A DNA stretch of 64,000 nt from Cenococcum geophilum (GCA_050273025.1 CP158635.1:12896001-12960000), one strand, 5' to 3'. Shown: positions 6,401 through 56,350, counted from the stretch's first letter. Translations and numbers: made by a program. Notes: a model not told the origin generated them from the letters alone.

Positions 6401-8670
6401 ACTTATAGCACCTTAGCTTATAGATATAGCTAGAGCATACTTTACTATAGGCTACTACCCGCAACTCGGAAGATCTATAATAACGGTTATCCTACAAAAA
6501 GAAGGTAAAGCAGATTACTTAATCTTAGAAAGCTACTGCCCTATTGCCTTAGAAAACACCCTTAGTAAGATCTTAGAAAGGGTAATAGCGGAACATATAG
6601 TAGATACGGTAGAGGAACACGCCCTACTACCACAAAGCTAAATAGGGGTAAGAAAGAACCGCTTAACACTATTAGTACTTACGCTACTCGCTACCACTAT
6701 TAAATCTACATGGGCGATACGAAAGGACTTTATAATATTAATACTTAGCCTAGATATTAGTGGTACCTACGATAATATACCCCATAAGCGTCTCCTGTAT
6801 ATCCTTAGGGCAAAGGGCTTTTTAGAATAGATTATATAATTTGTCTAAGGGTTTATAGGCCAGAAAGAAACATTACTAGTCTTTAGCGGATACTAGAGCC
6901 CCCCTATTATAGTTGCAATAGGAATACTATAAGGATTACCCCTCTTACCTATACTCTTCCTTTTCTTTATAAGCAACCTGCTCGACTTTTTTAAGGAAGG
7001 GGCGACTTAGGGGATAGGCTTTGTTAACAATATAAACCTAATTATATACGGGCCAACAGCCGTAGAGAATTACAGAATACTAGAGAAAGCCTATAATACT
7101 TATATAGAATAGGCAAAATGTTATAGAGTCCAATTCTTACTAGAGAAATACTAGCTAATCTATTTTATAAGAAAACGTAACTAATCTATAGATCTTTAGT
7201 ATATAATTCGCATCTAAGGCTTTAGGGGTTAACTAGTTTAGGGCTTAAGGGTATTAGGAGTATAGGTAAATAGTAAGCTCCGGTAGAGCGTATATACGGC
7301 GTAAGCGGCCCGTAAAGGCCAAGTATAGTTTATCGCTTTATCTAGGATTGTTAACTCTATATAGGGTCCATGCTTCTAGAGGTTACGCCTACTATATATA
7401 GCAGTTGTCCGGCTAACCATAATATATAGATCCAGTATTTGGGCCATTAGAGAAACTAAGAAGGGCCCCCCTAAATTACTCCTTAAACTACTTTAAAAGG
7501 TCTAGATAGCCTGCCTCTGGAATATTATAGGCGGGTATAAGCAAACGGCTATAATACTACTTAAGAAGGAATCCAATATTCCCCCTCTATAGTTATATAT
7601 TAAAGCCGCTGTAATATAAAGGACGTAAAATAAACGTAACTCTAATATTATAAAGTATATTAAGACACGCCTAAGTAAACTATGGAGGGACCCTAGGGTG
7701 CCCTATAGGAGAATAAACCAACAACCCTAAAGTAGGGAAGAGATATTAGAGAAACAGGTAAAGAAAGTAGAAGAAAAATAGTGCCGCTTTAGAGCCCAGG
7801 CCTATATAGAGGAGGAAGGAAGACGTATAAGAGGTCAGTAAAGATAATAGTAAGATAGAGAAAGGAGCTAAAGTAGAACATATAAAAACGCTAGGAAACT
7901 ATCTACTATAATGCAATACTGGTTGGACTAACGCTAAAGAGGTAAATGGGAGTTAAAGGTATAGAGGCTAACTTAGGTAAGACGAACCTAAGCTATAGCA
8001 TGGTTAATGCTATGGGGGGTAAATACCCAAGGGCTTTAAGAAGGCCTAATAAAGGCAGAAAATATAATAGCAACACTTTTAAGAATAGGAATAATAGGAC
8101 TAAAAGATTAGCTTTACTGGGTGGGTGTCCTAGTAGGTAGCCTAAGATGCAAATGTGGCTAGCCAAGACAGACACCAAAACATGTAATACTGCTATACCC
8201 CCTACGTACTAATTAAGAAACAATGCTCTTAGTAGCTAGCATAGAGAACTATAATACACTGCTCTTAATATAAAAAGGCCTTAAGGCGGTCACCTAGTGG
8301 CTTATTAGTTAAAATATACTAAATTAGTTCCGGGTTATAAGGGAAATGGTAATAAAAGGTAAGGGGGCAAGCAGCAGGTGCCCCCTAGTAACTCTATAGT
8401 AGTAGAGTAATAGTTTATAATACTAGCGCGTCTATAGGCTTGTTACGGCAGTAGTAGTTCCTAAGAAGGTTAAACAGTAAGGTAGTAGAGCACTATAGGC
8501 GACTTATAGGCGCTAAGTAGGCGAGTCCCAAAAGGCGGGGAGATAGATCACGGGGTTTTCTTATTTTTCTTAAATAGAGTTTTCTCCCCATATATAAATA
8601 AGGAGTAGTCCGTGTGGGCCCAATAGGGATCCAAATCGGACGTTAAGCAATGAATTATTATTATTATTAT
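3436..8670 (+). mobile_element. Full-length non-LTR retrotransposon (Tad1/CgT1-like LINE), RIP-inactivated
   Basis: 15-bp TSD tatataatataacac at 3421-3435 and 8671-8685; (TTA)n 3' tail. De-RIP ORF2 motifs: endonuclease GD.NLHHP.WGG (~5361), RT APG.DGI (~6351), YRPIALENT (~6533), LDISG.YD (~6750), GIPQGSPLSPILF (~6921), FVDD (~7020). Confidence 0.95.
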
Positions 8671-9269
8671 TATATAATATAACACCTTAAGAAGAAATGG
8701 GAATATTACTATTTAAGGCAAATTATAGATATAAGCTAAGAACATCGTTATCGCTACAATAAGTAAAGAAAACGAGTAGTATAGCTAAGTAAAGAATGGA
8801 GATACTAATAAATCTTTATATAAACCTCACGAAAATAGCAAAAGTGGTATAGCAAAGAATAAAAAAGTACTATAACGCTAAGAGATCTAAGGGACTAGAT
8901 CTTAAGGAGGGAGATAAAGTATAGCTACTATATAAAAATTTTAAGAGTTAATAACTAAGTAAGAAGTTAGATTACGTTAGACTAGGACCTTTTAAATTTT
9001 AAAATTTTTTTTATTAGCTATATTTAAGCTAAACCTATTAGCTAAAATAAAGATCTACCCTATATAACGCATTACAATGCTAGAGCTAGCATATGAGAAT
9101 ATTAAGCCACTAGTTTATAAAGCAGACACGTATAGAGGATAAGAAGAAGATAAATAGTAAGTTTTAAAGATTATTAATTATAAAAGCGTTAATAATAAAA
9201 TATAGTATAAAGTAAAGTGGATAGGCTACAATAAGACTACCTAGGAGCTACTAGAAAATTTAAAGAACG

Positions 9270-9942
9270 CTATAGGAAAGGTATAGGAGTATTAAAAGAG
9301 AAAAGGTTAGGTAGTATTAATAAAGAAGGATTACTAAAGAACGAACTACCTAAGGGGGATATAGGAAGAACGATTACCAAGCTATTTAGAGTTATTCCCT
9401 TCTCTATTAAAGGAGAATCTGTTCTTTTATTACTAAGTTCCTATAAACCTTATTCTATAAGTTTTTACTCTTTAAAACGAACCTTTTTATAAACTTTCTT
9501 AAGACGGATTAACTAAGCAGACGCAGTAAGACGAGAATTAAGGGCGCGTTGCTAAGTATTAGCAGCCTTCTTTTTAGCGTTATAAGAATAATAAAGTTTA
9601 GTAAAAGTAACTAAAAGCTTATCGTTAAGCTTTATAGTAGTAAATTAAATACAAGACCCTATAATAGATTACTTAGGGGACTTAAAGACTATTTAGAGTA
9701 ATAAGGCGTATATATTTAGTGTCGGAAACGGAACGAATATTATAAGATAATTAAACGTTTAACTTAGCGCACTTTAAATAAGAGGATAGTTATTGGGAGG
9801 AAGGACTCGCTAACGCAATATAAACTAACCCCTTTTTCGCATAACGAGAATATAGAAATAGTATTATCTTACTAAGAAATAATATTATAGCAACGGTATA
9901 GGACTAACAAGCTATAAAAGAAGAAGAAGGTGCTTTAAGTAT
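9270..9942 (-). pseudogene. Antisense ORF of Gypsy A1: Zn2Cys6-like cluster plus coiled coil, 55-bp intron 9659-9713 (RIP-disrupted; 3' end approximate)
   Basis: De-RIP reading MPKAPSSS..TVAAILSLGEIMPSPCSRCAKKGLVCIALASPSSRQPSSCSECAKSNVRSSCDVRSVSDAE|WSRIQSAAVKL; acceptor TAG|GG intact; aligns with two other copies. Confidence 0.75.
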
Positions 9943-10050
9943 TATAAGTAATAATATTAACCGAGTTAATTAAATAGATATTATACCTCTAATAAACAAC
10001 CTAGAGATACTAAGTATCTTTAAGGACGAAGATAAAGAGGAGGGAGATAG

Positions 10051-10470
10051 TGTTATAGACGCTTTAAGTACAATATTATAACTACTTAGAGAAGAGTTAG
10101 AAGAAGCTAGTTAATTAATATAAACATGGTTTAAGATAAAACCTATAGAACTATATAACAAGGAATAGTAAGCAGAGTTATGTAATATAATCTGTGTAAT
10201 CTATATAATTTATAAGATCTATTACGGAGCGAATAGAGTAGATAGAGTAGACAGAGCGACAACTTTCTTAGGAGTATGGTTATATATTTAAGGACCCTTA
10301 GTCCCTACCTAGATAGTTCCTTCCTTATAGTAATTCTTAGAATACAATTAGAGTTAATCTATTAGGCAACCACTCCACCAGTTATTATTATTGTTGTTAA
10401 CTTATCTGTATCTATATACCTAGCCCATTAATAGGACCCACTGTAGTATAAGCTATAAGGTTCTGTTACA
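10051..10470 (+). repeat. 3' LTR of Gypsy A1 (420 bp)
   Basis: TGTTA...GTTACA termini after the PPT; matches LTR 55929-56350. Confidence 0.92.
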
Positions 10471-32008: not shown

Positions 32009-33960
32009 CTTCTTAATAATAGTATTAACTCTTTAATTATATTACTAAGCCTTACTCGCAATTTCCTTAATAGTCCTTATTCTATTACTAAAATCTTAGT
32101 CCTAAGCTTGCTTCCTTTTTAAGCTATACTTTAGCCTTAGTCTAACTAGGCTTTTATAGTGTTCTTATCTTATCTTAAGAGTCTTAAATCTTACTTACCT
32201 TACTTTAAAAATCTTATGCCTATAGGAAACTCTATCCTAAGCTTATTTATATATCTTTAAACTAAGCTACTACTCTACTTTATTAGTTATTATCTATTAT
32301 AGGTTCTTAAGCTTATCTTATCCCGTCTTAGAAATCTTAAGCGTCTCTTATCTTATTTTAAGAATCTTAAGCCTATAGCTTTTTACCTTTATTAAGTAGT
32401 AAGCTAGCACTAGTAGTCGTCTACTTATTTAATCCTTTTTATTAAATATTTCTCCTTCCGTTTTATAAAGCGATAGATACCGTATCTAATAGTAGTATAA
32501 TTTTTATTACTAATTCTTGTTCTATAAAGGTCTTAGTCTCTACTTTTAATATAACTATTTTAAGGTCTATATACTTCTAGTAAGCTACTTTTATTACCTT
32601 ATTATTGCTAAATATTTTACTTATATTAAATTTATTGTCCTTAATATCTAATTTATAAGATAGTTCGTTAGTTCCTCTAAACTTTAATAATATTAGCTCT
32701 TATAGCTAATAGCTTACGCTATACTTAGCGTCTTTATAAATTTAGTATACATTATTATAGCAAAACATAAAACTTCTAATTAAACACTCTTTTATTCCTT
32801 ATAGTATACTTATTATCTCTTTATATATATATATCTTCTACTAGTCTAGTTCCCTTAACCGCATAGTTATTTTAACTATCTTTATAGTTTCTAGCGAAAT
32901 AACATTATTTCCCGTAATTTATATAAGCTCCTTCTTTAAACCATTTTTACTGCTATAAAGTTTACCTAAACGTCTTCTACTATTAAGATCCCTAGTTTAG
33001 CCTCTGCTCCTTAGGTCTATAATTACTTAATCCTTACCCTTTAGGTTTCTATAGTTGCTTTATCTATCTCTTATAGGTTTTTTTAGTACTACTTAGGTCT
33101 ATTAGCTCTACGCTATACTATAATTTTTAACTTAGTTAATATGTACTCTACGCCTTATATAACTATAAAACTCTATTCTAACCCTTCTTAGTTTATTCTC
33201 TTTGGTAGATCCTATTATTAATCTTAATTACTTAATTAATTAGTTCTCTAAGAGTATCCGCATTTTCTATTAGGATAATTACGTCCTAAACTTTCGCCTT
33301 AAGTCCTTATTTATACTGTGCTATAAGCGCCTTATTATTCTATTTAACCTACATTGCTAGCATTTAAAACTATATCGTATACTCAATTACTAAGGCTTAT
33401 TATACTAAATTTTAGAGCTTTTTTTTGCCGTAGTGATTACCTCTAGGTCTCTAAATATTTACATTAGTTACTTTATAAACCCGTTCTAACTAGCAAATAT
33501 ATATTATACTTCTTAATTAGTAGTTACTATATCGTTTTCCTATATCTCTATAAGGTAAGGTTTAAACTACTTAAGTGCCCTTTCTATTAGGAATAGTCCT
33601 GCGTAGGCTATTTAGTCCATAACCATTACTAGCTTTGCCCCCTCTTATATAACCTTAAATTGCATTTACATAAGGAATCCCTTAAGCTTTAACTTCTTCC
33701 CTAAGAATCGCTTAATAGATAGTAGCTTAATCTTAGCTACTCTTATCCCATTAATCCTTTTTTAAGTATCCTATTATTATCTGTTAATTAATTAACTATT
33801 GCCTATAACTATCTAACCATAACTAGTTATAAGTTAGTATCTACTATACTAGTGTTATTACCTAACCCTAAAGTAGTTACCGCTGTAGACACTATTATAG
33901 CTACTGCTTTTAGTAGCATATTATTTAACTTTATTAATACTATAACTTTAGTAGTAAATA

Positions 33961-34384
33961 TATAATAAAGCCTTATAGTAAGAACTACAGTAGACTTATT
34001 ATTAGGCTAGGTATATAGGTAAATAAGAAGTTAATAACGTAATAATAACTAATAGAGTGGTTGCCTAATAGATTAACTTTAATTTTATTTTAAGATTTAC
34101 TACTAAGAATAGAACTATCTAGGTAGGGACTATAGTCCTTTAAATATATAATACTGCGCCTAAGAAGTACTTAAGTATATTAGTATGTTAAATATCCTAA
34201 GTATATAACGTTCTAATAGATCTTATAGATCCTACGTTCTAAACCTATAATGTAATCGCCTCTGTAACTTGGTTACCCCTTATTTTATAGTTTAACTAGT
34301 TCTAGCACCTCCTGTACTTCTACTACTAGTCTATTTATATCTTTCCTTAGTAGTTCTACTACTGCCGATATAAGGTCCGTAATA
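33961..34384 (-). repeat. 5' LTR of minus-strand Gypsy B (424 bp)
   Basis: Reverse complement of LTR 36709-37350 minus its MITE; TATA-like box at ~34141-34150 on - strand. Confidence 0.9.
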
Positions 34385-35929
34385 TTAGATAGGCATAAAT
34401 GCTTATAGAATACTATTTTAAGATTTAGTATACTAAAGGCACTAAGAATATAAGGGTAGATGCACTTAGTAGAAAAGCTAAACTATAGAATAATAAGAAG
34501 CCATTAGGAGCAATACTATATAAAGATAGTAATAAATTAATTAGGTATAATTATCTTAAGATTATAGTAACTTAGGAATATAAGCTACCGGAAAGTTATT
34601 AGATAAGAAGAATCTAAAAGGCGTAATCTAAGGATTTAGAAACAAACTAGTATAAATAGAGAATAAATATATATATCCTAAGGGGAATAGCAGAAGAGTT
34701 TATTAAGGATTTTTATAAGGGAATAATATAAGGACACAACGGAGTAATAGGCTTAGTATTGAAACTTTAAGAGGAGTATATTATTTATAAAATCTAAGGC
34801 TTAGTAAGAAAAGTTATAAAGGAGTATTTAGATTGCTAGGGAAATAAGCTAATAGGGTATAGGCCGTACGGAAAGCTATAACCTATTAAAGTATTTAGGG
34901 GGTTATAGGGAGCAATATTATAGGACTTTATCGTAAAGTTGCTAAAGTTAAAAGATTTTATTACTAGATAGGAGTATAACGTAATCCTTATAATAGTAGA
35001 TAAGTTAACTAAATAGGGCTATTTTATAGCATATATAGAAGAAATCTTAGTAGAAGATATTGCTAGAATCTATATTAAAGAAATGTTTACAAGATATAGA
35101 GCACTAAGTAAAATTATATTAAATAGAGATTTAAGATTTATAGTAGTATTTTAAGAGGTATTTTTAGCAGAATAGGGAGTTAAAGTGGTAACTTTTACTA
35201 TATATTATCTATAAACGGATAAATAGGTAGAAAGACTACATTAGATACTAGAATAGTATTTAAGACATTATATTAATTATATATAGAATAGTTAGGTATT
35301 ACTGTTACTAGTTATATAATTTATATACAATATAATACCGCAGGAAGGTATAAAGATATTACTATTTTAGGTAAATTACGGATATAGGCCTAGAATACTA
35401 TTGTTACTATAATAAGTAAAGAAAATAAGCGGTATAGTAAAGTAGAGAATAGAGACTCTATTAAATCTTTATAAGGACCTCTATTTTATAGCAAAATTAG
35501 TATAAAAAAATTAATAAAGTACTATAATATTAAGAGATCTAAGGGACTAGATCTTAAGGAGGGAGATAAAGTATAGCTATTATATAAAAATTTTATAAGT
35601 TAATGACTAAGCAAGAAGTTAGATTACGTTAGATTAGGACTATTTAAAATTATAATTAAAGTTTTAGAAGTTATATATAGACTTAACTTACTAGCGAAGA
35701 TAAAGATCTACCTAGTACAGTATATTATAATACTAGAACTAGCGCATAGAGATATAGAGCTACTAGTTTATAAAGTAGATATATATAGAGGATAAAAGAA
35801 AGATAAATAGTAAGTTTTAAAGATTATTAGTTATAAGGACGTCGATAATAAAATATAGTATAAAGTAAAGTAGATAGGCTATAATAAGATTACCTAAGAA
35901 CTACTATAGAACCTAAAGAACGCTATAGG

Positions 35930-36603
35930 AAAGATATAGGAGTATTAAAAGAGAATAGGTTAGGTAATATTAAAAAGGAGCTAAAGATAAAGGGATTAGT
36001 TAAAGGTAATAAACGAGCCGGATTATCTAAGGGATCTACTACTAACGTATTAGTTATTTCCGCCTTAGCTTAATTAGAATCCTTTTTAGCCTCTTTAGCC
36101 TTAAGCTTATAGAGACCTTACTTAATAAAACGGAACTCCTTTAAGCGTACCTTTTTATAAACTTTTTAAGATAAAGTAGCCAAACGGATATAGCTAGGTA
36201 AGCCTTAGTAGCCTATTACTAAGCTTTCGCAACCTTTTACTCTACTTTATAAGAACGGCGAAGTTTATTTAGGGCTAGTAAGAACTCCTTATTAAGCTTT
36301 ATAGTAGTAGACTAAATATAGGACCTTATAGTAAATTAAATAAGGAAGTTAAAGACTTTAAAGACTAATAAGGCGCGTATACTTAGCGTTAGAAATAGAT
36401 TAAATATTATAAAACGATTGTATATTCGCTCGCGTACACTCTATATAGGAAAAGGGTTAGCGACTAGAGGGAGCCGCAATTATAATATATACTAACTTCT
36501 TCTCTATATAACGAGAATAAGGAGATATAATTTTACCTAGTAAAAGAATCGTTAAAATAATATAAGCATAACGCTTAAATACAGAAGATTTAATAGGAGG
36601 TAT
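35930..36603 (-). pseudogene. Antisense ORF of Gypsy B: Zn2Cys6-like cluster plus coiled coil, 55-bp intron 36326-36380 (3' end approximate)
   Basis: De-RIP MPP.ESSASKRRARIVSTILSLGEIMSPCSRC.EKKLVC..IAAPSGRQPSSC.ECTRANMRSSCDVRSVSDAE; same cysteine spacing and intron position as the A copies. Confidence 0.75.
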
Positions 36604-36845
36604 TAAAAACGATAAAGGTTATTAAATTAAAGATGCGAATACTATACCTCTAATAAACAACTTAGAGATATAAGATATCTTTAAGGACGAAAATAAAGAG
36701 GGGGATAGTGTTACAGACCTTATATTAGTAGTAGTAGGACTACTAAGGAGAAATATAAATAGACTAGTAGTAGAAGTATAGGAGGTGCTAAAACTAGTTA
36801 AACTATAGGATGAGGGGTAACTAAGTTATATAGTAAGTTACGTTA

Positions 36846-37061
36846 CTATCTGCAAAAGATCGGTAACTCGCTTAGGACGCGAAAAAACCGCATCGCCCCC
36901 CCATCAAAACAATACACCCCCTATAGTCCTACCAATATAGCTCCATACCTCATAAATACAGAGCTATATTGGTAGGACTATAGGGGGTGTATTGTTTTGA
37001 TGGGGGGGGGATGCGGTTTTTTCGCGTCCTAAGCGAGTTACCGATCTTTTGTAACAGATAG
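36846..37061. mobile_element. Foldback MITE (216 bp, TA TSD) inserted in the Gypsy B 3' LTR
   Basis: ~98-bp near-perfect inverted arms with a 17-nt loop (36944-36960); TA at 36844-45 and 37062-63; empty site in LTR 33961-34384. Confidence 0.93.
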
Positions 37062-37537
37062 TATAAGTTTAGAATATAGGATCTATAAGATCTATTAGAA
37101 CGTTATATACTTAGATTATTTAATATACTAACGTACTTAAGTATTTCTTAGGCGTAGTATTATATATTTAAAGGACTATAGTCCCTACCTAGATAGTTCT
37201 CTTCTTTATAGTAAATCTTAGAATATAATTAGAGTTAATCTATTAGGCAACTACTCCACTAGTTATTATTACATTATTAACTTCTTATTTACCTATATAC
37301 CTAGCCTATTAATAAGTCTACTATAGTATCTTCTATAAGGCTTTATTACAAATATTAATTTTATTAAAGTTTAAAAATGCGTTATTAAAAGCCTAAGCAC
37401 GTATTATATCTTATTAAATAGTTTACTAATATTAATAAAACTATATAGGTGTGTAGATATCTACTACTTAAAGCTATTACAACACCTAGTAGGTATTATA
37501 GTTAGGTCCTTCCTTAAAAATATCCTTCTACGTATTA

Positions 37538-37890: not shown

Positions 37891-38002
37891 ATAACTCTAT
37901 TAGGGCCTACACCATAACCTATAAAGGGCTGCGAAGTAAATTAATTAAATAGGTATATAGCAGATAAAATACCCACTGGTTATAAAGAGGGCTAGTAGCG
38001 TA

Positions 38003-38427
38003 ACGTAGTCGGTAAGCCTGTGGGCCATGCAAGCCTATAGGCTATATCAAAACCCTACCAAAAATTACCTTAATATCTTAACAACCACTTAATAATAAAT
38101 CCTAATAATTTAGATTTAGACTTTTATATACACTTTACAGCTTGTATTAAAGTTGCATGGAAAATAGTTTAGTAGTTTTTAAGATATTAAAATTTGGGGG
38201 CCGAAATAAGGCCATATTACCATATCTTACCATATCTTAAACACTACTAAACTATTTACTATGCAACTTTAATAGAAGCTGTAGAGTATATATAAAAGTC
38301 TAAATCTAAATTACTAGAAATTATTATTAAGTAGTTGTTAAGATATAAAGGTATGAATTTTCTAATTTCCGGTGGGGTCTTAATGTGGCCCATAGGCTTG
38401 CATGGCCCACAGGCTTACCGACTACGT
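38003..38427. mobile_element. Foldback MITE (425 bp), Fot1/pogo-type ACGT termini
   Basis: TIR acgtagtcggtaagcctgtgggccatgcaagccta extending as ~185-bp imperfect inverted arms; TA TSD at 38001-02 and 38428-29. Confidence 0.92.
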
Positions 38428-38859
38428 TAAGCGTAAGCGTATTTACTACGCGCCTTAGGAGGGCAGTAGAATTGGAGCCTCTGCGGCAACAAACTCCTCT
38501 TAGCGTCACGCGTATATAAGGAGCTAAAGATCTTATAACTTATAGAGTAGGTTTTTCTCTATAATTTAGTATAATTTTTATGTCGATAAGTATTATGGGA
38601 GGGTAGATTAATTTCGTTAAAGTTAATAAGGTCTTCTCATATAAACGGTGTTTAGGTTTTCTATAAATCTCGCCAAAGTCCCTCAGACCAAGAAAACGAT
38701 TACCGTCCTAAATTAGCTTATATCCGCAATCGATTTCTTGGTCTGAGCTTCTGAGGTAACTTTATAATGCGTGCGCATTTCAGATTTGTCAGGTAAACCC
38801 ATAGAAAGTAAAAATTACCAAGCATTAAATTAGATCTTACAAGACATCGAGCACAACAT

Positions 38860-39508: not shown

Positions 39509-39704
39509 TAAAGATAAGGTAGGCGCACTCTACTGGCGTGGCCTAATACATTATAGGCGGGCGGACACAGGGATTTGATTATGCGCGAAACCCACTCTAC
39601 GCGATAAGCACCGATAAACACATACTATCATTGGACGACTAATTCAGTATTGTAAATCCGTTAGAAAGGCGTGATGAATTTCGTTTCTTCCGCCTAAACC
39701 GCTC

Positions 39705-40456
39705 CTAACACTTCCCGCAATTCAGACAAACGCGAGCAAGCTTCATTACAGCACTTTCCAGTCCTCGCTTGCAGTCAAATGACCATACTGCCTCGATGTT
39801 GCCATGAAGGTCCTCGACACCGTTACCATCGCCACCCCTTCTAACAGGTACTGTGACACTGACCCTTCCCACTGTTTTCTCAACCCTTCCTCCATCATCG
39901 CCGTCCATTGTACAGATACCAAGTATATCGGCAAGCCCATTGTCAGTAAGGAAGCCCCCCACTTGCCTGGCAAAGTCCTCAGGTACTTCTTCGGTATCGT
40001 ACATCTCATCGCCGTTAATATTGAAGCCATATTCATATGCTTGGAGCTCGCCCTCGAGAAATCTCCAAGAACGCGGTACGGTAACACCCCCAAAGACATT
40101 ACCATTGGCTGGGACTTGCCAAGGTGTAGATACGTTGCCGTATTCAACTACTCGCTCACCAGGGTCGATCTTGAAGTGGTTATGCAAGAGTGCCAACCCA
40201 AGCCGAAGTTGGACGCCATGTTCCTCGAAAATAGTCCTGCGTGATAGGATTAGCAATGATGCAGTATATCATAGAGACCAGCCTCCCTTGCGATTGCAGT
40301 GGGTACATACTTTAGTTCAGCAAGATCGCTTCTCTCCCCCATCGAGGCCAACTGCATTGAGAGCCGGGTATTCGACTCGTGCAAACTCGGCAATTCGTTG
40401 AAGATTGAGGTTCTGTCGATCATTGTGCGCACATTCATGACTTTTGAGCACGCCAT
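39705..40456 (-). CDS. Hypothetical protein, ~225 aa, two coding exons (40456-40311, 40236-39705), C-terminal CxxCxxC
   Basis: GC-balanced, RIP-free; intron 40237-40310 with GTATGT donor, GCTAAT branch site and GCAG acceptor joins ...LAELK|TIFEEHGV in frame. Motifs FNELPSL, LLHNHF, PW, PRSW, YEY resemble an uncharacterised fungal family (recollection only, not searched). Confidence 0.85.
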
Positions 40457-41138
40457 ACCTGACCTGCAATTAGCTTGCATCCAAGTGAATAAGAAAGCGT
40501 GAAGACCCACCTATTTTGAGGCAGGTTCTGCTTTAAGCTGTCTAGTGGCGTACGATGAGGGTGCCAAGTCGGAAATTGATGGATTCCCGGTGGTATTTAT
40601 ATTCGGCGCCTCCGGTGTACAAGGTGGCAGGCTCTCAGATAAGACACGTTGCTGCCTTGCAGGGCTGCCAAACGCATCGGTGAATGATCACCCAACACCG
40701 CTCAGCATCCACCCTGTCTATTACATCCGCTCATCGAGGCTTGCACTGGCGAGCCAACCGGGCACAAAGTCCCTCCGTATTTCTATGCCTCTGGGCGCTC
40801 AAAACATGCCTAGAGAGGTGGGGGGGCGCAGGTCCTGAGTGGCTCCACGTTGAGCCAGCTGCAGTCAGGTTCCTAACCTAGCAAGAAATGGGTTGTCGAG
40901 GTGGTGAGTTGAATCTCGTGATTGTGCGTGCTGCAATACCCAATAGCAAGAATGAGCACTTTAGCGTTATATGATAAACCCCCCGACTCATCGGGGCCGG
41001 CTCGACGGGTGGGAACCCTTCACCGAGCGGAATACTCAGCGAATAAAGTGCAACACTCATATTGCTCAGACAACTCCACTAGTCCGTTTCCGTCTGCCTC
41101 TAAGCTCCTTAGAAGCTTCGCAAATCCACGCTCAATAA
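40457..41138. promoter_or_regulatory. Divergent promoter region; TATA box for the - strand gene and probable 5' UTR intron
   Basis: Minus-strand TATAAATA at ~40594-40601; GTGGGT donor at 40510 with GCTAAT..CAG near 40460-40475; several CGG/CCG pairs. Confidence 0.55.
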
Positions 41139-43498
41139 ATGGACCGCACGATGAACGACGATGATGAGTGGTTCACCGCTTTTTGGGGAGAGTCAATAGA
41201 AAGTTTTCCTACGAGTCCTGAGAGAGATACCGCTCGAATCGCGTCTGGAGGTAATTGGTCTGAAGAGAGCGATGAGAGCTTCGAGGAGATATCAATCCCT
41301 AATAGGAGTCGTGTCCCCATATGGGATGCTGGGTACGGACCTTCTGATTCTAAGATCAACTGCAGAAATACTGGAACAGAAATGTTCAGCGTAGAAGTTC
41401 CCCCAGCGGGGCGGATTACTTCGCAGTTAGTCCTCTTGGCCTTGTCACTGCACATATTCTGAGCGAGGTTTTCCGCACTGTTAGCGCAGACTACTGATTG
41501 AGAGCAGTTATGGTATTATACGCCACACCTCCGAAGGTTCTCCGCGAAGAACCCGCCAGCCAGCCGAGAATACCGAGCATCAGAAGGCGGCCACTCTCCA
41601 ACCATTCGCGGATTTGCAAAGCGTGTGGAATCCTTTAGCCACAGAAGTAGCTGTGCAGCCAAAGATACCTACAGATCCTAAATCCATAATTACCGAGGAA
41701 CGCAAGTTCTTAGAAAGCATGAAAGCGCAAATCGAGAAGCGACTTCGTGCATTAGACCAGCTTCAAACAGGAAGAGCTACAGAAGGACGAACACATGTTC
41801 CCGGAATTACAATCGGTCGTAAAGGCGAGGAAGCTGAACGTGCGAGAACGTATACTGTAAGGAGCTTTGCTAAACAAGTGTTGTTCTAAGAGTCCGCTAA
41901 TAACGAAACTGCTGCAAATGAAGTCGAATATTCAAAATCGAGACTATCACTCTGTCAAACGCACGAGTCCTGTAGCGATTCAGCATCAAGGATCTCCAAG
42001 CTTAAAAGCAATCAAGAATCCTAAGCAAAACGTGGAAGGAAAACGACTCAGCCGGAGGGGAGGACGGCCAGGCGGAGACACATGCATCCGATGCAAACAT
42101 CAGAAATTGAAGGTCTGTATTTGCTTTAATATCGTGAAGGTACAACTTGATGATGTGCTATAGTGCAAAGGAAGAGCTCCTTGCGAAGGGTGCCGGAAGC
42201 TCAAGTTATGGGCACCGATTTGCGTGCCTGCCGGCTTCGCGAGTGATAGGGTCTATATACGTGGTAGGACTGTTTTCGGGTTCAAAATCCCCCTTGGGAT
42301 GTATATTGATATTCTGCAGGGCTGTACAAAGCTCGTATGAGTAATTTAATTTCCAATGTTGCAAATTGGATCCCTATGAATCCGTTCGTTGCACCTCCGA
42401 CCATCACAGTTTCAAACGGCTTCCCTGTGACATTATCTCTTGAAGTACAAGAATACACACCACACAATACGAGCGCCCTAATACATGTCATATGGCGTGG
42501 CATGGAAGCTGGAACAATTCCGCCTCAGGTTCAAAGCAGTCCATTTGGACTCAATCCAAGGAGATATGATGTGAGAATTATCGATTCCTACCTGGACGAA
42601 ATGGTGCCACATCTTATAGAGAGTGTTGCCAAAGAGAGCCCTCAACTGATTAGAGTGATCCTGCTACGGGCATACAGTCAGAGTCAAAGGGATGATTGGA
42701 TAGAAGGAGCGGCAGGTGTAAGTACAGCTTGTGTTTCTTAAAAGATGACATATCATTCTGACCCAATTGTCCAGAACCTGCTCATCAAAGTGTCCTTGCG
42801 GCTTTGGGCGGCGCAAACCATATTCTTCAAGTCGCATTGGAGGATTGACTCTGGCGCTGAAGTTGTACAAATGGCACCCCTTGATATCCCTGGCTATTGG
42901 AATGGCGTGACACTCTTACCTCGCCTTATCAACCAGCAATTGGACGCTCTCTTCGAGCAGCGGATGGCTGATCTGGAAAAGGAAATCCTGTACCATCTGC
43001 AAGTAGCGATGCATAAAAATCGCCGTGACTTGTGGTTCTCCATCTTCCTTAGCACTTTCCTAGTGCTCCATAGTTTGGAAAAGGATTCCTGGAATCTCCA
43101 CGCTTGGATGTCGGAAGTGCGCCGCGATGGCGGAGCAAGTTGGCCATTGGAAACCAAGCCAGAGGTGTATAATGACCAAAATACTCATCTTGCGCATCTT
43201 TTGTGTGCACACTATAAGTCCATTTGCAAAGGTAGTACGCCGCTCACTCTCGATTGGACGCGCCCAAGCACCAAAAAAATAGTACACAATGACGAACTCA
43301 CTGCTCAGTTCTTGCAAGGGATCAGCGAACTGATCAACAAACAAGGTTTTTGATTACCGCTTTCAAGGGTTTCTATGTTGATTGCTAATGACTTCAGAAG
43401 AACTCCAACGACTGAAAGCGCAGGGGGATGCACGCTTCACACGAGAGGACAACAGCAGCTTAGATCTGCTCTTTACGTCGAAGCTACTTATAGACTGA
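41139..43498 (+). CDS. Zn(II)2Cys6 fungal transcription factor, multi-exon (~650 aa)
   Basis: Spliced cluster CIRCKHQKLK|CKGRAPCEGCRKLKLWAPIC (C-X2-C-X6-C-X5-C-X2-C-X9-C). In-frame introns: 41426-41507 (alt. acceptor 41489), 41857-41923 (acceptor uncertain), 42113-42163, 42264-42319, 42718-42774, 43346-43397. Stop TGA at 43496-98; start 41139 or 41151. Confidence 0.9.
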
Positions 43499-51700: not shown

Positions 51701-54700
51701 GATAAATGACAGTAGTGGGAATACCTAAAGAATATGTGTCTATGGTATATTAAAGAAAAGAAGCGAACTAAGTATTAGCTAAAAGTGGACTAAGTATAGA
51801 CAGGATCTAGTAGCCAATAGTTAGGAAAAGGGGAGGCCTATAGAACTAGAGGGAACTAGTAGTAGAGCCTTAGACCCTTAAAGGAATTTAAGGACGACAC
51901 CTAAATTTATAAGTTAATTGGCAAGATTAGCAGTTTAAAGCATTAGTAGATAGTGGAGTAATAAGGAACCATATTTTACTAGTAGTAGTTAAAAGGATAG
52001 GACTACCATTATCTATTAGTTATAATTTTAGGAGATCCGATAGCCTATAGAGAAGGCATTATTAATCTTAAAACAGGACCTATTTAGCTAACCATTAAAG
52101 GAAGATAAATTAAGATGTCTTTTAATATATTGCCATTAGGGAATAATAAGGCGATACTAGGAATACCTTAGTTACAGGAATATAATCTAAAGATCGATTG
52201 GGTTACAGGTTAGGTCGATATTAGGGATACTTAACAACATAAAATGCGATAACAGACTAAGTTGGTATAGTACTAAGTCGGAGCGACATATAAGGAAACT
52301 AAGAAAGGGTTAGATTATATACCAAAGAGATACTATAAGTATAGTAAAAAGTTATAGTCACTAGAAAGTGAAAAGCTGTTAGAATATATAGTATAGGACT
52401 ACGAGATAGAGTTAGAACTAGGAATAAGTCTAAGGTTATTTCTAACCTATAAGCTTACTAAAGAAGAGGGTAGAGCACTTAAAGAGTTTATCTAGGAGAA
52501 CTTACGAAAGGGATATATTAGACTATTATAGTTATTAGCGGGTTATCCAGTACTGTTCGTACCAAAGAAGAATAGAAAACTTAGGTTATACATTAACTAT
52601 AGATAGTTAAACAGCATTATAAGAAAGGATAGGTATCCTTTACCCTTAATTAGCAAAATCTAAGACAGGATTGGTAATACGCGAATCTTTATAAAGATAG
52701 ATCTAAAATGGGCGTACTATTAGATTAGAATCAAGGAAGGCAACGAATAAAAGGCAGCCTTTAGGTTAAAGGAAGGATTATATAAATTATTAGTTATGCA
52801 ATTCGGGCTTATAAACGCGCTAGTAACGTTCCAGAAACGAATTAATAGCGTATTAGGAAAGCACCTTAATGAGTTTATTATAGTATACCTTAACGACATT
52901 ATTATCTACTTAATAATGGAGGAAGAGCACAAGGAATACGTTAAATGGGTCTTAAAGAGACTATAAGAAGAATAAATGCTAGTAGCAATTAAGAAATGCG
53001 AGTTCTTTATAAGGAAGACCAATTTCATCGGGTTTATTATTAAATTAGGCAAGCTAAGCATAGACCTAAAGAAGATTAAAGCTATAGTAAATTAGCAAGA
53101 ACTAGAGAACGTTATATAGTTGAGATTGTTTTTAGGGTTTTATAATTACTACAGGAGATTTATAGTATAATGGTTAAAGAATATTAAGCCATTTACTTAA
53201 TTAATAAAGAAAGAGAAACTATAGGTATGGGAAGAGAAGTAGAGGAAACTATTTAAAGAACTTAAGGAATTATTTACCTAGGAACTAATCTTCAAAATCT
53301 ACTAACCAAAGTTAGAGACGGTATTAGAAACGGATATATTAGACTTTATACTAAAGGCATACTTTATATAGAAATATAAAGACGGATGGCACCTAGTAGC
53401 ATACTATAGTAGGAAGATAACACTACTAGAACTAAACTATAACATCTATAATAAGGAGTTATTAGGTATAGTTATAGTATTAGGGGAATAGAGAGCATTC
53501 TTATAAGGCATAGAGAAACTATTTATAGTTAAGACGGATTATAAGAACCTAATAGGATTCCTAATAATAAAGGAACTTAACTAAAGATAGGTTAGATGGG
53601 CAGAGACACTTACAGACTACTATTTTAAAATCTAGTATATTAAGGGTATAGACAACACATAAGCAGATGCGCTAAGTAGAAAGGCTAAACTACAAAACAA
53701 TAAGAAGCTATTAGGGGCTTTATTACGAAAAGACATAGATAGATTAATTAGGTACAATTATCTAAAAATCGCAGTAACTTAAGAAGACGTAATAGAAAGA
53801 GCCTACAAGACACTAGAAAGCTTTTGGGTATAAAAGATTTTAAAAGCATAACTAGAAGATCTGTAGGTAGATATATATAAAAACCAAAAAGTAAAGTACA
53901 TCCTAAGAAATATAGCAGAGCATTTTGTGGAAGATTTCTATAAGGGAATAACTTAAGGACATAATGGAGCTACGGGCTTAGTGTTAAGACTCTAAGAGGA
54001 GTATATTATTAACGGAATCTAGGGCATAGTACGAAAAATTATAAAGGAATATCTAGATTGCTAAAGAAATAAACTAATAAGGTATAAGCTATATGGAGGG
54101 CTACAACCTATTAAAATACTAGAGAGACTATAGGAGGTCATATTATAGGACTTTATTATTAAGTTACTAAAGTTAAGAGATCCTATTACCGGACAAGATT
54201 ACGACGCGATCTTAGTAATAGTAGATAAGCTAACAAAGTAGGGATACTTTATAGCATATATAGAAGAAATCTTAGCGGAAGATGTCGCTAAAATCTATAT
54301 TAAAGAAGTGTTTATAAGACACGGAGCACTAAGTAAAATTATATTGAATAGGGATCTAAGATTTATAATAGCATTCTAGGAAGTATTCTTAGTGGAGTAA
54401 GGAGTTTAAGCAGTAACTTCCACCGCATATTATTCACAAACAGATGGTTAAACAGAGAGATTAAATTAGACGCTGGAGTAGTATCTAAGACATTATATTA
54501 ATCACGTATAGAATAATTAAGTATCGTTATTACCAGTTATATAGTTTATATATAATATAACACCTTAAGAAGGAATGGGTACATTACCATTTAAGGCAAA
54601 TTACGGATATAAACTAAGAACATCGTTATCACTATATTAAGTAAAGAAGATAAGTAGTAGAGCTAAGTAAAGAATAAAGGATCTAATAAATCTTTATATA

Positions 54701-56350
54701 AACCTTATGGAAATAGCTAAGGGAGTATAGTAAAAAATAAAAAAGTACTATAACGCTAAGAGATCTAAGGGACTAGATCTTAAGGAGGGAGACAAAGTAT
54801 AGCTACTATATAAAAATTTTAAGAGTCAACGACTAAGTAAGAAGTTAAACTACGTTAGGCTAGGACCTTTTAAAATTACGCAGAGGATTTCACTAGTTAT
54901 GTTTAAGTTAAACCTACTAGCTAAAATAAAGATCTACCTAGTATAGTATATCGCGATACTAGAGCTAGCGTATGGAAATATTAAGCCACTAGTTTACAAA
55001 GAAGACACGTATAGAGGGCAAGAAGAGGATAAATAGCAAGTTTTAAAAATCGTTAGTTACAAGGATATAGACAATAAAATATAGTACGAAGTAAAGTAAA
55101 TAGGCTATACTGAGACTACCTAGGAGCTACTAGAGAATTTAAAGAACGCTATAGGAAAGGTATAGGAGTATTAGAAGAAAATAGGTTAGGTAATATTAAT
55201 AAAGAAGGATTAAAAAAATAAGTTACCTAAGGGGGACCTAGGAAGAGCGACTGCTAAACTACTTAGAGTTGTTTCCTTTACTAATAGAGGAGGGTTAGTC
55301 CTCTTATTACCTAGTTCCTAAAGACCCTATTCTATAAGTTTCTACTCCTTAGAACGGACCTTCTTATAAACCTTCTTAAGACGGGTTAACCGAGCGAACG
55401 CAACCTGTTGAGTTTTAAAGGAGCGACGCTGGGCCTTAAGGGCGCGAGCAGTCTCCTTAGCAGAATAATAGAGTCCGGCACGAGCAGCGGCCAACTCCAA
55501 TTTAAGCTTTATAGTAGTAGATTAAATATAAGACCTTATAATAAATTACTTAGGGAACTAGACGACTATTAAGAGTTATAGGACGCGTATACTTAGCGTT
55601 AGAAATAGAGCGAATATCGTAAGATAATTAAACGTTTACTTTAGTGCACTCCAAACAAAATAAGGGCTGTTAAGATAATAGGCTTGCTATTATAATATAT
55701 ACTAACCCCGCTTTTAAACAGCGAGAACACGGAGATAGCATAATTTTACTAAGTAATAGTATTGCAGCAATGGTGCGGGCACGACGTTGCGCTTATAAAG
55801 AGGAAGTTGCTTTAGGTATAGTAAGTAATAATAATAACTAAATTAATTAGATAGATATTATACCTCTAGTAAACGACTTAAAGATACTAGGTATCTTTAA
55901 GGATAAAGATAAAGAGGAGGGAGATAGTATTACGGACGCTTTAAGTACAATATTATAACTACTTAGAGAGGAGTTAAAAGAAGCTAGTTAGTTAATAAGA
56001 GCACAGTCTAGGATAAAGCCGGTAGAACCATGTAATAAGGAATAGTAAGCGAGTCATATAATGTTATACGCAGTATACGCGGTATACGTATTATACGTAA
56101 ACGTATAATACGTATAACACGTACGTTACGTATAAGAAGGATTTTATAGGAGTACGGTTGTGTATTTAAGGACCCTTAGTCCCTACCTAGATAGTTCCTT
56201 CCTTAAAGTAATTCTTAGAATATAATTGGAGTTAATCTATTAGGCAACTACTCCACTAGTTATTATTACGTTATTGACTTACTTGTAATACCTATATACC
56301 TAGCCCATTAACAGGACCCACTATAGTACTTACTATAAGGTTCCGTTACA
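48763..56350 (+). mobile_element. Ty3/Gypsy chromovirus family A copy 2, with aberrant 43-bp 5' terminus and normal 3' LTR (55929-56350)
   Basis: TSD actag at 48758-62 and 56351-55; gag ATG ~48846; CCHC C.NCGK.GHFARDC (~49850); protease ALVDSG (~51940); RT FGL.NA..TFQ/YLDD (~52800-52900); RNase H; integrase; chromodomain (~55115). Confidence 0.95.
55150..55819 (-). pseudogene. Antisense ORF of Gypsy A2: Zn2Cys6-like cluster plus coiled coil, 55-bp intron 55536-55590 (3' end approximate)
   Basis: Literal translation ...QRRARTIAAIL...SPCSRCLKAGLV[Y]-X13-CLECTK-X6-[Y]D: four Cys intact, two TAT/TAC (RIP of TGT/TGC). Exon 2 reads KL.LELAAARAG...ETARAL.AQRRSF.TQQVAFARLTRL. Confidence 0.8.

Follow-up and report, generated by a model that had tools for sequence, protein, structure and literature searches.

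The window, a stretch of 64,000 nucleotides from Cenococcum geophilum, is a nest of AT-rich RIP-type repeats (GC 0.23-0.50 per 2-kb bin) in which ORFs of at least 150 aa occur only at 39.7-43.4 kb. A GC-rich island at 39700-43400 (GC 0.42-0.50) is presumably ordinary gene space separating repeat nests. At 35923-36603, on the minus strand, lies a copy, inactivated by RIP and here called copy B, of a genuine accessory gene carried by a chromodomain Ty3/gypsy lineage (Table 1). Self-BLAST finds two counterparts of this region, one at 8662-10060 (A1, 71.7% identity) and one at 55493-55937 (69.5%), the latter part of a longer A2 counterpart spanning 54549-55937; in addition, 34385-35979 of the element that carries copy B (element B) pairs with 53592-55205 of A2. 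The A2 element, at 46.5-56.4 kb, bears on its + strand gag, zf-CCHC, RT, RNase H, integrase and SH3_Tf2-1 domains (Pfam, stops read as X), which identify the host element as Ty3/gypsy, and a chromodomain is seen by eye. Because the polypurine tract (PPT) and LTR lie downstream of copy B and the end of pol lies upstream, the antisense gene sits between the end of pol and the PPT and 3' LTR, on the opposite strand. The 3' LTR of element B is itself split by a foldback insertion at about 36840-37066.

Table 1. Features of element B and of the three copies of the antisense gene, in window coordinates. L002, L003 and L008 are intact copies from metagenomes.
Feature	Position	Strand	Basis
Copy A1 of the gene: exon 1 9942-9714, intron 9713-9659, exon 2 9658-9270	9270..9942	-	tblastn, alignment
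Pol remnant of element B: integrase C-terminal part, SH3-like domain, chromodomain; RIP-mutated, 5'-truncated	34385..35990	+	self-BLAST against A2; aligned with pol of L002, L003, L008
Copy B exon 2: long helix, acidic tail, conserved C-terminal motif; natural stop TAG at 35925-35923	35923..36325	-	alignment; tblastn with P0093, E=4e-8
Copy B intron: 55 nt, phase 1	36326..36380	-	position and length as in the GT..AG introns of L002, L003, L008
Copy B exon 1: N-terminal helix and six-Cys domain; start codon ATA (from ATG) at 36603-36601	36381..36603	-	alignment to intact copies; tblastn E 7e-13 to 3e-26
Leader upstream of the antisense start codon	36604..36689	-	strong conservation across types; in intact elements also the conserved end of the pol tail (TPLI..LEM..IFEDE)
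Polypurine tract of element B	36690..36708	+	direct reading; aligned with PPT of L002, L003, L008
3' LTR of element B: starts TGTTACAG at 36709, ends TTACA; 5' half B-type, 3' half common with family A	36709..37350	+	self-BLAST, LTR alignment
Copy A2 of the gene: exon 1 55819-55591, intron 55590-55536, exon 2 55535-55149	55149..55819	-	tblastn, alignment

RIP damage in copy B and its sisters

The exon and intron limits of copy B were set by a six-way DNA alignment with intact copies. The ATA in place of the start codon, splice sites that now read AT..AA (originally GT..AG), nine premature stops, the change of five of the six Cys codons to TAT and a 1-nt deletion in exon 2, just 5' of 36165, mean that copy B is not an open ORF; the earlier note, which missed the deletion, had described the ORF as conserved here. 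The literal translation reads PYSRY-X6-Y-X13-YIEC-X8-YN, then R-stop-PFS, then stop-SISNAK/W (the slash marking the splice junction). The pre-RIP reading takes Tyr TAT as Cys TGT, Asn as Asp, and TAA as CAA or CGA, and so read the motifs that the note had given for copy B (PCSRC-X6-C-X13-CxEC-X8-CD, the RQPSS linker and the junction RSVSDAE/W) are correct, each residue being present in the intact copy L008, although they are absent from the sequence as it stands. The 288 differences between copy B and L008 consist of 201 C>T or G>A changes, 25 reverse transitions and 62 transversions. The 55-bp intron had been placed exactly, and its length and position are the same in all three intact elements; TTAAT within it, which resembles a branch site, derives from CTGAY/TTGAT. 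The note had described the differences as largely conservative or whole-codon indels; the indels between copy B and A1 or A2 are multiples of three except for the 1-nt deletion in B and a 2-nt deletion in A2.

All three copies in the window are dead. A1 has nine premature stops and has lost five of its six Cys codons; A2, the least damaged, has seven premature stops, the 2-nt deletion (near 55212) and two of six Cys codons lost. In a single RNA run bearing the same species label, of which about 12% was covered, no reads fall on 35300-36577, which fits a silent, dead copy. Reads from that run fall on LTR segments only, and at just 90-95% likeness, so they come from other copies.

Relatives, splicing and selection on the protein

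A word-based protein search with the RIP-damaged A2 frame gave no match. With A2 exon 1 (P0001) as query, phmmer found 77 proteins at E<=1e-3, eight of them at E<=1e-10, among 1.84e9 representatives; most are RIP-damaged short ORFs starting MP.., and further searches recovered intact protein forms (P0079, P0097, P0099, P0102, P0103 and P0105-P0108). By tblastn the intact relatives match the window at three minus-strand places only, B at 36040-36609, A1 at 9345-9942 and A2 at 55249-55828, and for both exons of copy B the E-values are far past chance. Among the cluster members of 10 relatives none has a name beyond 'hypothetical protein', and the Atlas neighbours are likewise ascomycete hypothetical proteins, Ascomycota being the commonest source.

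A metagenome scan with a query alignment of nine sequences confirmed relatives of the gene in 75 of 267 candidate stretches (pattern matches). A RIP-affected look is evident in 71 of the 75 (TA/AT 1.16-1.72); the four loci without it (TA/AT 0.70-0.88) are L001, L002, L003 and L008. On the strand opposite the gene, L002 and L003 carry PR, RT, RNase H, integrase, SH3_Tf2-1 and Chromo domains (Pfam). The spliced coding sequences of L002, L003 and L008 give proteins of 209, 197 and 201 aa, all six Cys codons are intact in each, and each has a 55-nt, phase 1 GT..AG intron whose branch site, CTGAY/TTGAT, precedes the AG by about 12 nt. These intact DNA copies number three, and L002 and L003 are related. 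Their contigs (7513, 7505 and 7546 nt for L002, L003 and L008) hold about one element each with a single LTR, differently permuted; the ends of the L008 contig overlap by 3 nt inside the intron, and in L002 the PBS and gag gene come after the LTR. We take these contigs to represent collapsed assemblies of a repeated element, or tandem copies, or circles with one LTR. A fourth lineage of the gene, slightly damaged, is present at L001:962-1618, with an intron of 64 nt (55 + 9) and one frameshift in exon 2 at which the gene frame and the frame of the pol tail both switch.

Database proteins provide evidence of splicing. In our alignment A5, 7 of 16 database proteins read DAEW-SRV straight across the junction, which, the intron length of 55 not being divisible by 3, requires a spliced RNA; in three others (P0106, P0114 and P0025) the reading continues into the intron, as expected of genomic DNA. 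The leaders of P0097 and P0098 extend upstream into sequence complementary to the PPT and to the LTR start, which would place the beginning of the antisense mRNA at the 5' end of the 3' LTR, either inside it or farther out. In a retroelement the sense genomic RNA retains an intron that lies on the antisense strand, and such an intron is thus inherited through reverse transcription; the gene would therefore be expressed from integrated DNA copies.

Selection was assessed among the intact copies and, separately, within the window. The dN/dS of the gene (Nei-Gojobori) is 0.147 for L002-L003 and 0.223 and 0.183 for A-type against B-type, at dS of 0.63-1.47, figures to be read with the bias that dN/dS carries in overlapping frames and, in exon 1, with the coincidence of the third positions of both frames. 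In pol of the same elements dN/dS is 0.08-0.115 overall and 0.085-0.166 for the part from integrase to chromodomain. For the window copies we ignored all transitions and counted transversions per site. Between B and A1 these are distributed over codon positions 1, 2 and 3 as 24/203, 18/203 and 46/202 (chi-square p=1.5e-4), between B and A2 as 27/202, 26/202 and 44/202 (p=0.023), and between B and L008 as 16/202, 8/202 and 31/201 (p=2.6e-4). Third positions thus have about twice as many transversions in B against A, and divergence at non-RIP sites is not uniform across the codon. The bias is significant in all pairs for exon 1 alone; for exon 2 alone p is 0.0498 for B-A1, 0.010 for B-L008 and 0.40 (not significant) for B-A2. 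In the intron, where few sites leave the comparison underpowered, transversions (7/55 and 9/55) are not above those of codon positions 1 and 2.

The earlier note's suggestion of purifying selection at the protein level is thus upheld by the dN/dS of intact copies and by the transversions in the window, with the qualification that this selection acted on active ancestors, before RIP. While the elements were active, purifying selection on the protein was nearly of the strength seen for integrase; the gene is real, spliced and constrained at the protein level.

Gene types, LTRs and a possible regulatory role

Copy B belongs to a second type of the gene with L008 as its intact relative. Over the gene region B is nearest to L008 (0.073 or 0.097 transversions/site) and lies 0.13-0.14 from the A copies. 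The LTR follows the same division in its 5' half: 14/204 transversions separate B from L008, and 43-44 of about 196 separate it from A copies; this bears out the note's claim of a different LTR 5' half in family B. In the 3' half, where all copies are alike, the counts are 7/209 against L008 and 10-14 of about 200 against A copies. Clustering of the genes by transversion distance yields an A-type cluster of 62 loci that includes A1 and A2, while L008, B, L001 and L070 each stand alone. A third cluster consists of six RIP-affected loci (L004, L007, L012, L013, L015 and L057), and these group with the A-type in pol.

The relationships of pol are discordant with those of the gene and LTR. Across the 1.5 kb of pol just upstream of the gene all distances fall within 0.026-0.061 transversions/site; the element closest to B over this stretch is L002 (0.034-0.036), a carrier of an A-type gene, and L008 is farther away (0.049). 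Over the 300 alignment columns that adjoin the gene, no transversions separate L008 from L003, four separate B from L002, and 12-16 are counted in the other listed pairs. The ranking of the intact elements by pol dS (L002-L008 0.52 < L003-L008 0.82 < L002-L003 0.95) is the reverse of their ranking by the gene. Family B is therefore divergent, as the note had it, in its gene and LTR 5' half, but its pol is not deeply so. The gene and the 5' half of U3 form a diverged cassette on closely related, mosaic backbones, and the discordance suggests exchange of this gene and U3 cassette by recombination between co-existing elements.

In the U3 of L002 and L008, about 130-200 from the LTR start, a TATTTAA box is preceded by tandem repeats that share an ACGT core and are specific to each type: CACGTACAT in the A-type, GGGAACGT and GACGTAC in the B-type. 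Inspection of the intact LTRs by eye for Gal4-like CGG..CCG palindromes showed the ACGT-core repeats instead.

The intact protein is 197-209 aa long and invariant in its layout, the six Cys included. It begins with a segment predicted by AlphaFold2 to be helical (pLDDT 75-86), followed by the Cys domain, in which the spacing C-X2-C-X6-C-X13-C-X2-C-X8-C occurs in L002, L003, L008, P0079 and P0097, and by the splice junction at ..SVSDAE/W.. Beyond this a helix of about 100 residues (98-200) is predicted with pLDDT 95-99 and bears the invariant motif RL.RLEKVREKVRSKE; the C-terminal tail is acidic and Ser/Pro-rich and ends SMLPD..SSDTP.PF. The Cys domain is predicted with low confidence (pLDDT 49-67 and 45-52), and exon 1 modelled on its own with 50 sequences has a mean pLDDT of 59.6. 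A complex prediction for two chains of P0097 residues 45-200 with four Zn scored 0.40, and one control scored 0.51, which weighs neither for nor against such a dimer.

The classical Zn(II)2Cys6 pattern is C-X2-C-X6-C-X5-12-C-X2-C-X6-8-C, and Gal4-type domains typically carry basic residues between the second and third Cys. Like Gal4-type factors, the antisense protein has its six Cys arranged as two C-X2-C-X6/8-C halves, with a long helix and then an acidic tail behind them. It differs in that its middle loop of 13 residues is one longer than the classical range, in that by eye no basic residues lie between its second and third Cys, in its size (about 200 aa) and transposon-borne setting, and in falling below the Pfam cut-off. 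The best match to Zn_clus (PF00172) scores 17.0 bits (E=0.0063, L002 exon 1) against a cut-off of 21 bits; any match at E<=10 is obtained for only 6 of 22 A5 members, with partial and mis-registered alignments; for P0025 E was 1.5. Scores for DUF3716 (PF12511) are likewise below the cut-off of 22 bits, at 20.1 (E=6e-4) for L003, 18.6 for L002, 15.4 for P0098 and 12.2 for L008, with alignments that cover profile positions 3-59 of 59 at E 6e-4 to 1.7e-3; matches were obtained for 3 of 22 members in one search and 4 of 9 in another. A sequence-profile search of the PDB gave no match (best E=0.52). Two Atlas neighbour clusters, one auto-named 'Zn(2)-C6 fungal-type domain-containing protein' (score 0.90) and one with DUF3716 in 28% of its members (score 0.77), serve as leads only. 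The Cys spacing that the earlier note gave with its zinc-cluster label is present in intact relatives, but neither profile reaches its cut-off, and the name derives from the spacing alone.

The Cys cluster, the long helix and the acidic tail, together with the co-variation of U3, suggest a small, dimeric, zinc-binding LTR regulator. We tentatively propose, at somewhat less than even odds, that the predicted protein binds zinc, dimerises through a coiled coil, binds nucleic acid and regulates the expression of its own element. Its likely target would be the U3 part of the LTR, which varies with gene type.

About as likely as the regulator, and doubtful on its own account, is a real gene whose product is something other than a transcription factor, such as an RNA-binding or particle cofactor or a copy-number inhibitor, or whose antisense RNA is itself active. 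The lack of basic residues between the second and third Cys and the failure to reach the Zn_clus cut-off speak for this, as does the nearest profile, DUF3716, which, as described in a study of Zymoseptoria tritici (PMC8232023), occurs in REP9-1 and REP9-2, also a fungal Cys domain in transposon accessory genes although the host element there is of another class (class II). The transcript would moreover be fully complementary to the 3' part of the genomic RNA. An RNA-only role, however, sits poorly with constraint at the protein level, and a Cys cluster with a long helix and acidic tail is the layout of a small fungal activator; this layout and the co-variation of U3 with gene type weigh against a product of another kind, and none of these points is decisive.

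A more specific proposal combines the regulator with the exchange between elements, namely that the gene and the 5' half of U3 form an exchangeable specificity cassette in which the six-Cys coiled-coil factor of each type would act on the ACGT-core repeats of its own LTR, with cassettes swapped between pol backbones, and that selection would in addition keep the pol frame stop-free into the LTR without amino-acid constraint opposite exon 2, giving about 0.9 kb of double coding. Taken as a whole we regard this as rather unlikely. With a clear protein layout, strong constraint, many relatives and an A/B contrast tied to the LTR promoter region, the question of self-regulation is directly testable.

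The open pol frame opposite the gene

Beyond the chromodomain, the pol ORF of L002, L003 and L008 continues without a stop for about 280-300 codons (in L003 Pfam Chromo lies at aa 1092-1140 of 1421), over a region equivalent to about 35990-36840 (+) of the window. This tail runs antisense to the gene over its two exons and the intron between them, then over the PPT, to a stop codon in the LTR that lies 220-250 nt past the antisense ATG. Gene positions 1, 2 and 3 lie opposite pol positions 2, 1 and 3 in exon 1, and opposite 1, 3 and 2 in exon 2. In L001 both frames are otherwise open, except for stops in the pol frame near the frameshift.

This arrangement invites the reading that the conservation belongs to the sense strand, the region being the C-terminal tail of pol and the antisense gene a by-product. 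Besides the open frame itself, two observations favour it. Among synonymous shuffles of the gene (5000 trials for each of the three elements, which are not independent, with codon usage kept and codon-pair context not), the pol frame is stop-free over both exons in just 0.08%, 0.22% and 0.7%; and the types share a conserved tail end, TPLI..LEM..IFEDE.E.EGDGVTD, which covers the PPT. In the remaining two antisense frames there are 0-5 stops per exon. The openness of the pol frame thus appears not to be a by-product of the antisense gene. The amino-acid constraint nonetheless lies on the antisense gene, given the contrast in dN/dS between the frames: opposite exon 2 the pol frame has 0.94-1.28 and the gene frame 0.19-0.22 (gene-guided alignment), and opposite exon 1, where third positions coincide, the values are 0.23-0.50 and 0.06-0.22. 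When the pol tail is aligned by its own protein sequence, the stretch opposite the N-terminal half of exon 2 has dN/dS of 1.2-2.0 and the other segments have 0.2-0.6. In either exon the surplus of transversions at third positions tracks the antisense frame despite the changed relation of the frames, spliced forms of the protein exist, and splice and branch signals are conserved. We consider the sense-strand origin of the conservation very improbable on these grounds.

Still less credible is a fragment of a host gene that was captured once and carried passively under neutral drift: the broken state of all three window copies and the lack of a Pfam family at cut-off would agree with it, but the gene is found in 75 confirmed loci, has dN/dS of 0.15-0.22 at a synonymous divergence of 0.6-1.5, keeps its six Cys, intron position and length and C-terminal motif across at least the A and B types and L001, and is broken in the window by RIP-type transitions and two small deletions. 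The best explanation as a whole, to which we assign a probability of roughly 0.8, is that copy B is a RIP-dead copy of a constrained antisense gene with an intron, selected for in active ancestors. Such a gene explains a recurrent pattern in the RIP-degraded repeat nests of Cenococcum geophilum. Its full overlap with an open and largely unconstrained pol tail would be an unusual case of double coding, and one that would affect annotation, both of the end of pol and of extra genes missed by gene callers. Outside retroviruses, to our knowledge, few LTR retrotransposons carry accessory genes, and no function is known for these.

Among published cases brtn of Boty comes closest, likewise an extra antisense gene between pol and the 3' LTR in an ascomycete chromodomain Gypsy element, described in papers that cite the original for Boty-like elements of Botrytis and Sclerotinia (PMC7264820, PMC8365987, PMC4227169). 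The gene reported here agrees with brtn in these respects; the likeness is one of position and orientation as given in those citing descriptions, and the window copies, for their part, are RIP-dead. In Monilinia a transcript is reported to match both a truncated Pol and BRTN (PMC5987419). No database match to relatives of our gene bears the name BRTN, the literature searched, which did not extend to the original 2011 description, gave no description of the BRTN protein, and antisense genes are not mentioned in PMC3248453. Relative to the citing papers' descriptions of brtn, the overlap with the pol tail and the gene and U3 cassette with discordant pol relationships may be new points. In plants, antisense additional ORFs of unknown function lie between pol and the 3' LTR of the Ty3/gypsy elements RIRE2, Grande1, Retand and PvRetro13, and are described as conserved within a family about as well as other element proteins (PMC7264820). 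Going by that description they share position and orientation with the fungal gene although they belong to another kingdom; set beside them, the fungal gene has a defined layout of six Cys, long helix and acidic tail, and a conserved intron.

Two further observations concern the surroundings of element B. A second element (33960-34382 and 32096-33965) lies head-to-head with it in inverted orientation, and the LTR of this element at 33960-34382 is B-type, with 4/210 and 7/212 transversions against the two halves of the LTR of element B. The foldback element in the latter is about 225 bp long, with arms of about 107 bp that are 91% identical, and is GC-rich and apparently without RIP mutation; it is missing from the adjacent inverted LTR copy, and a second palindrome occurs in the window at 37998-38432.
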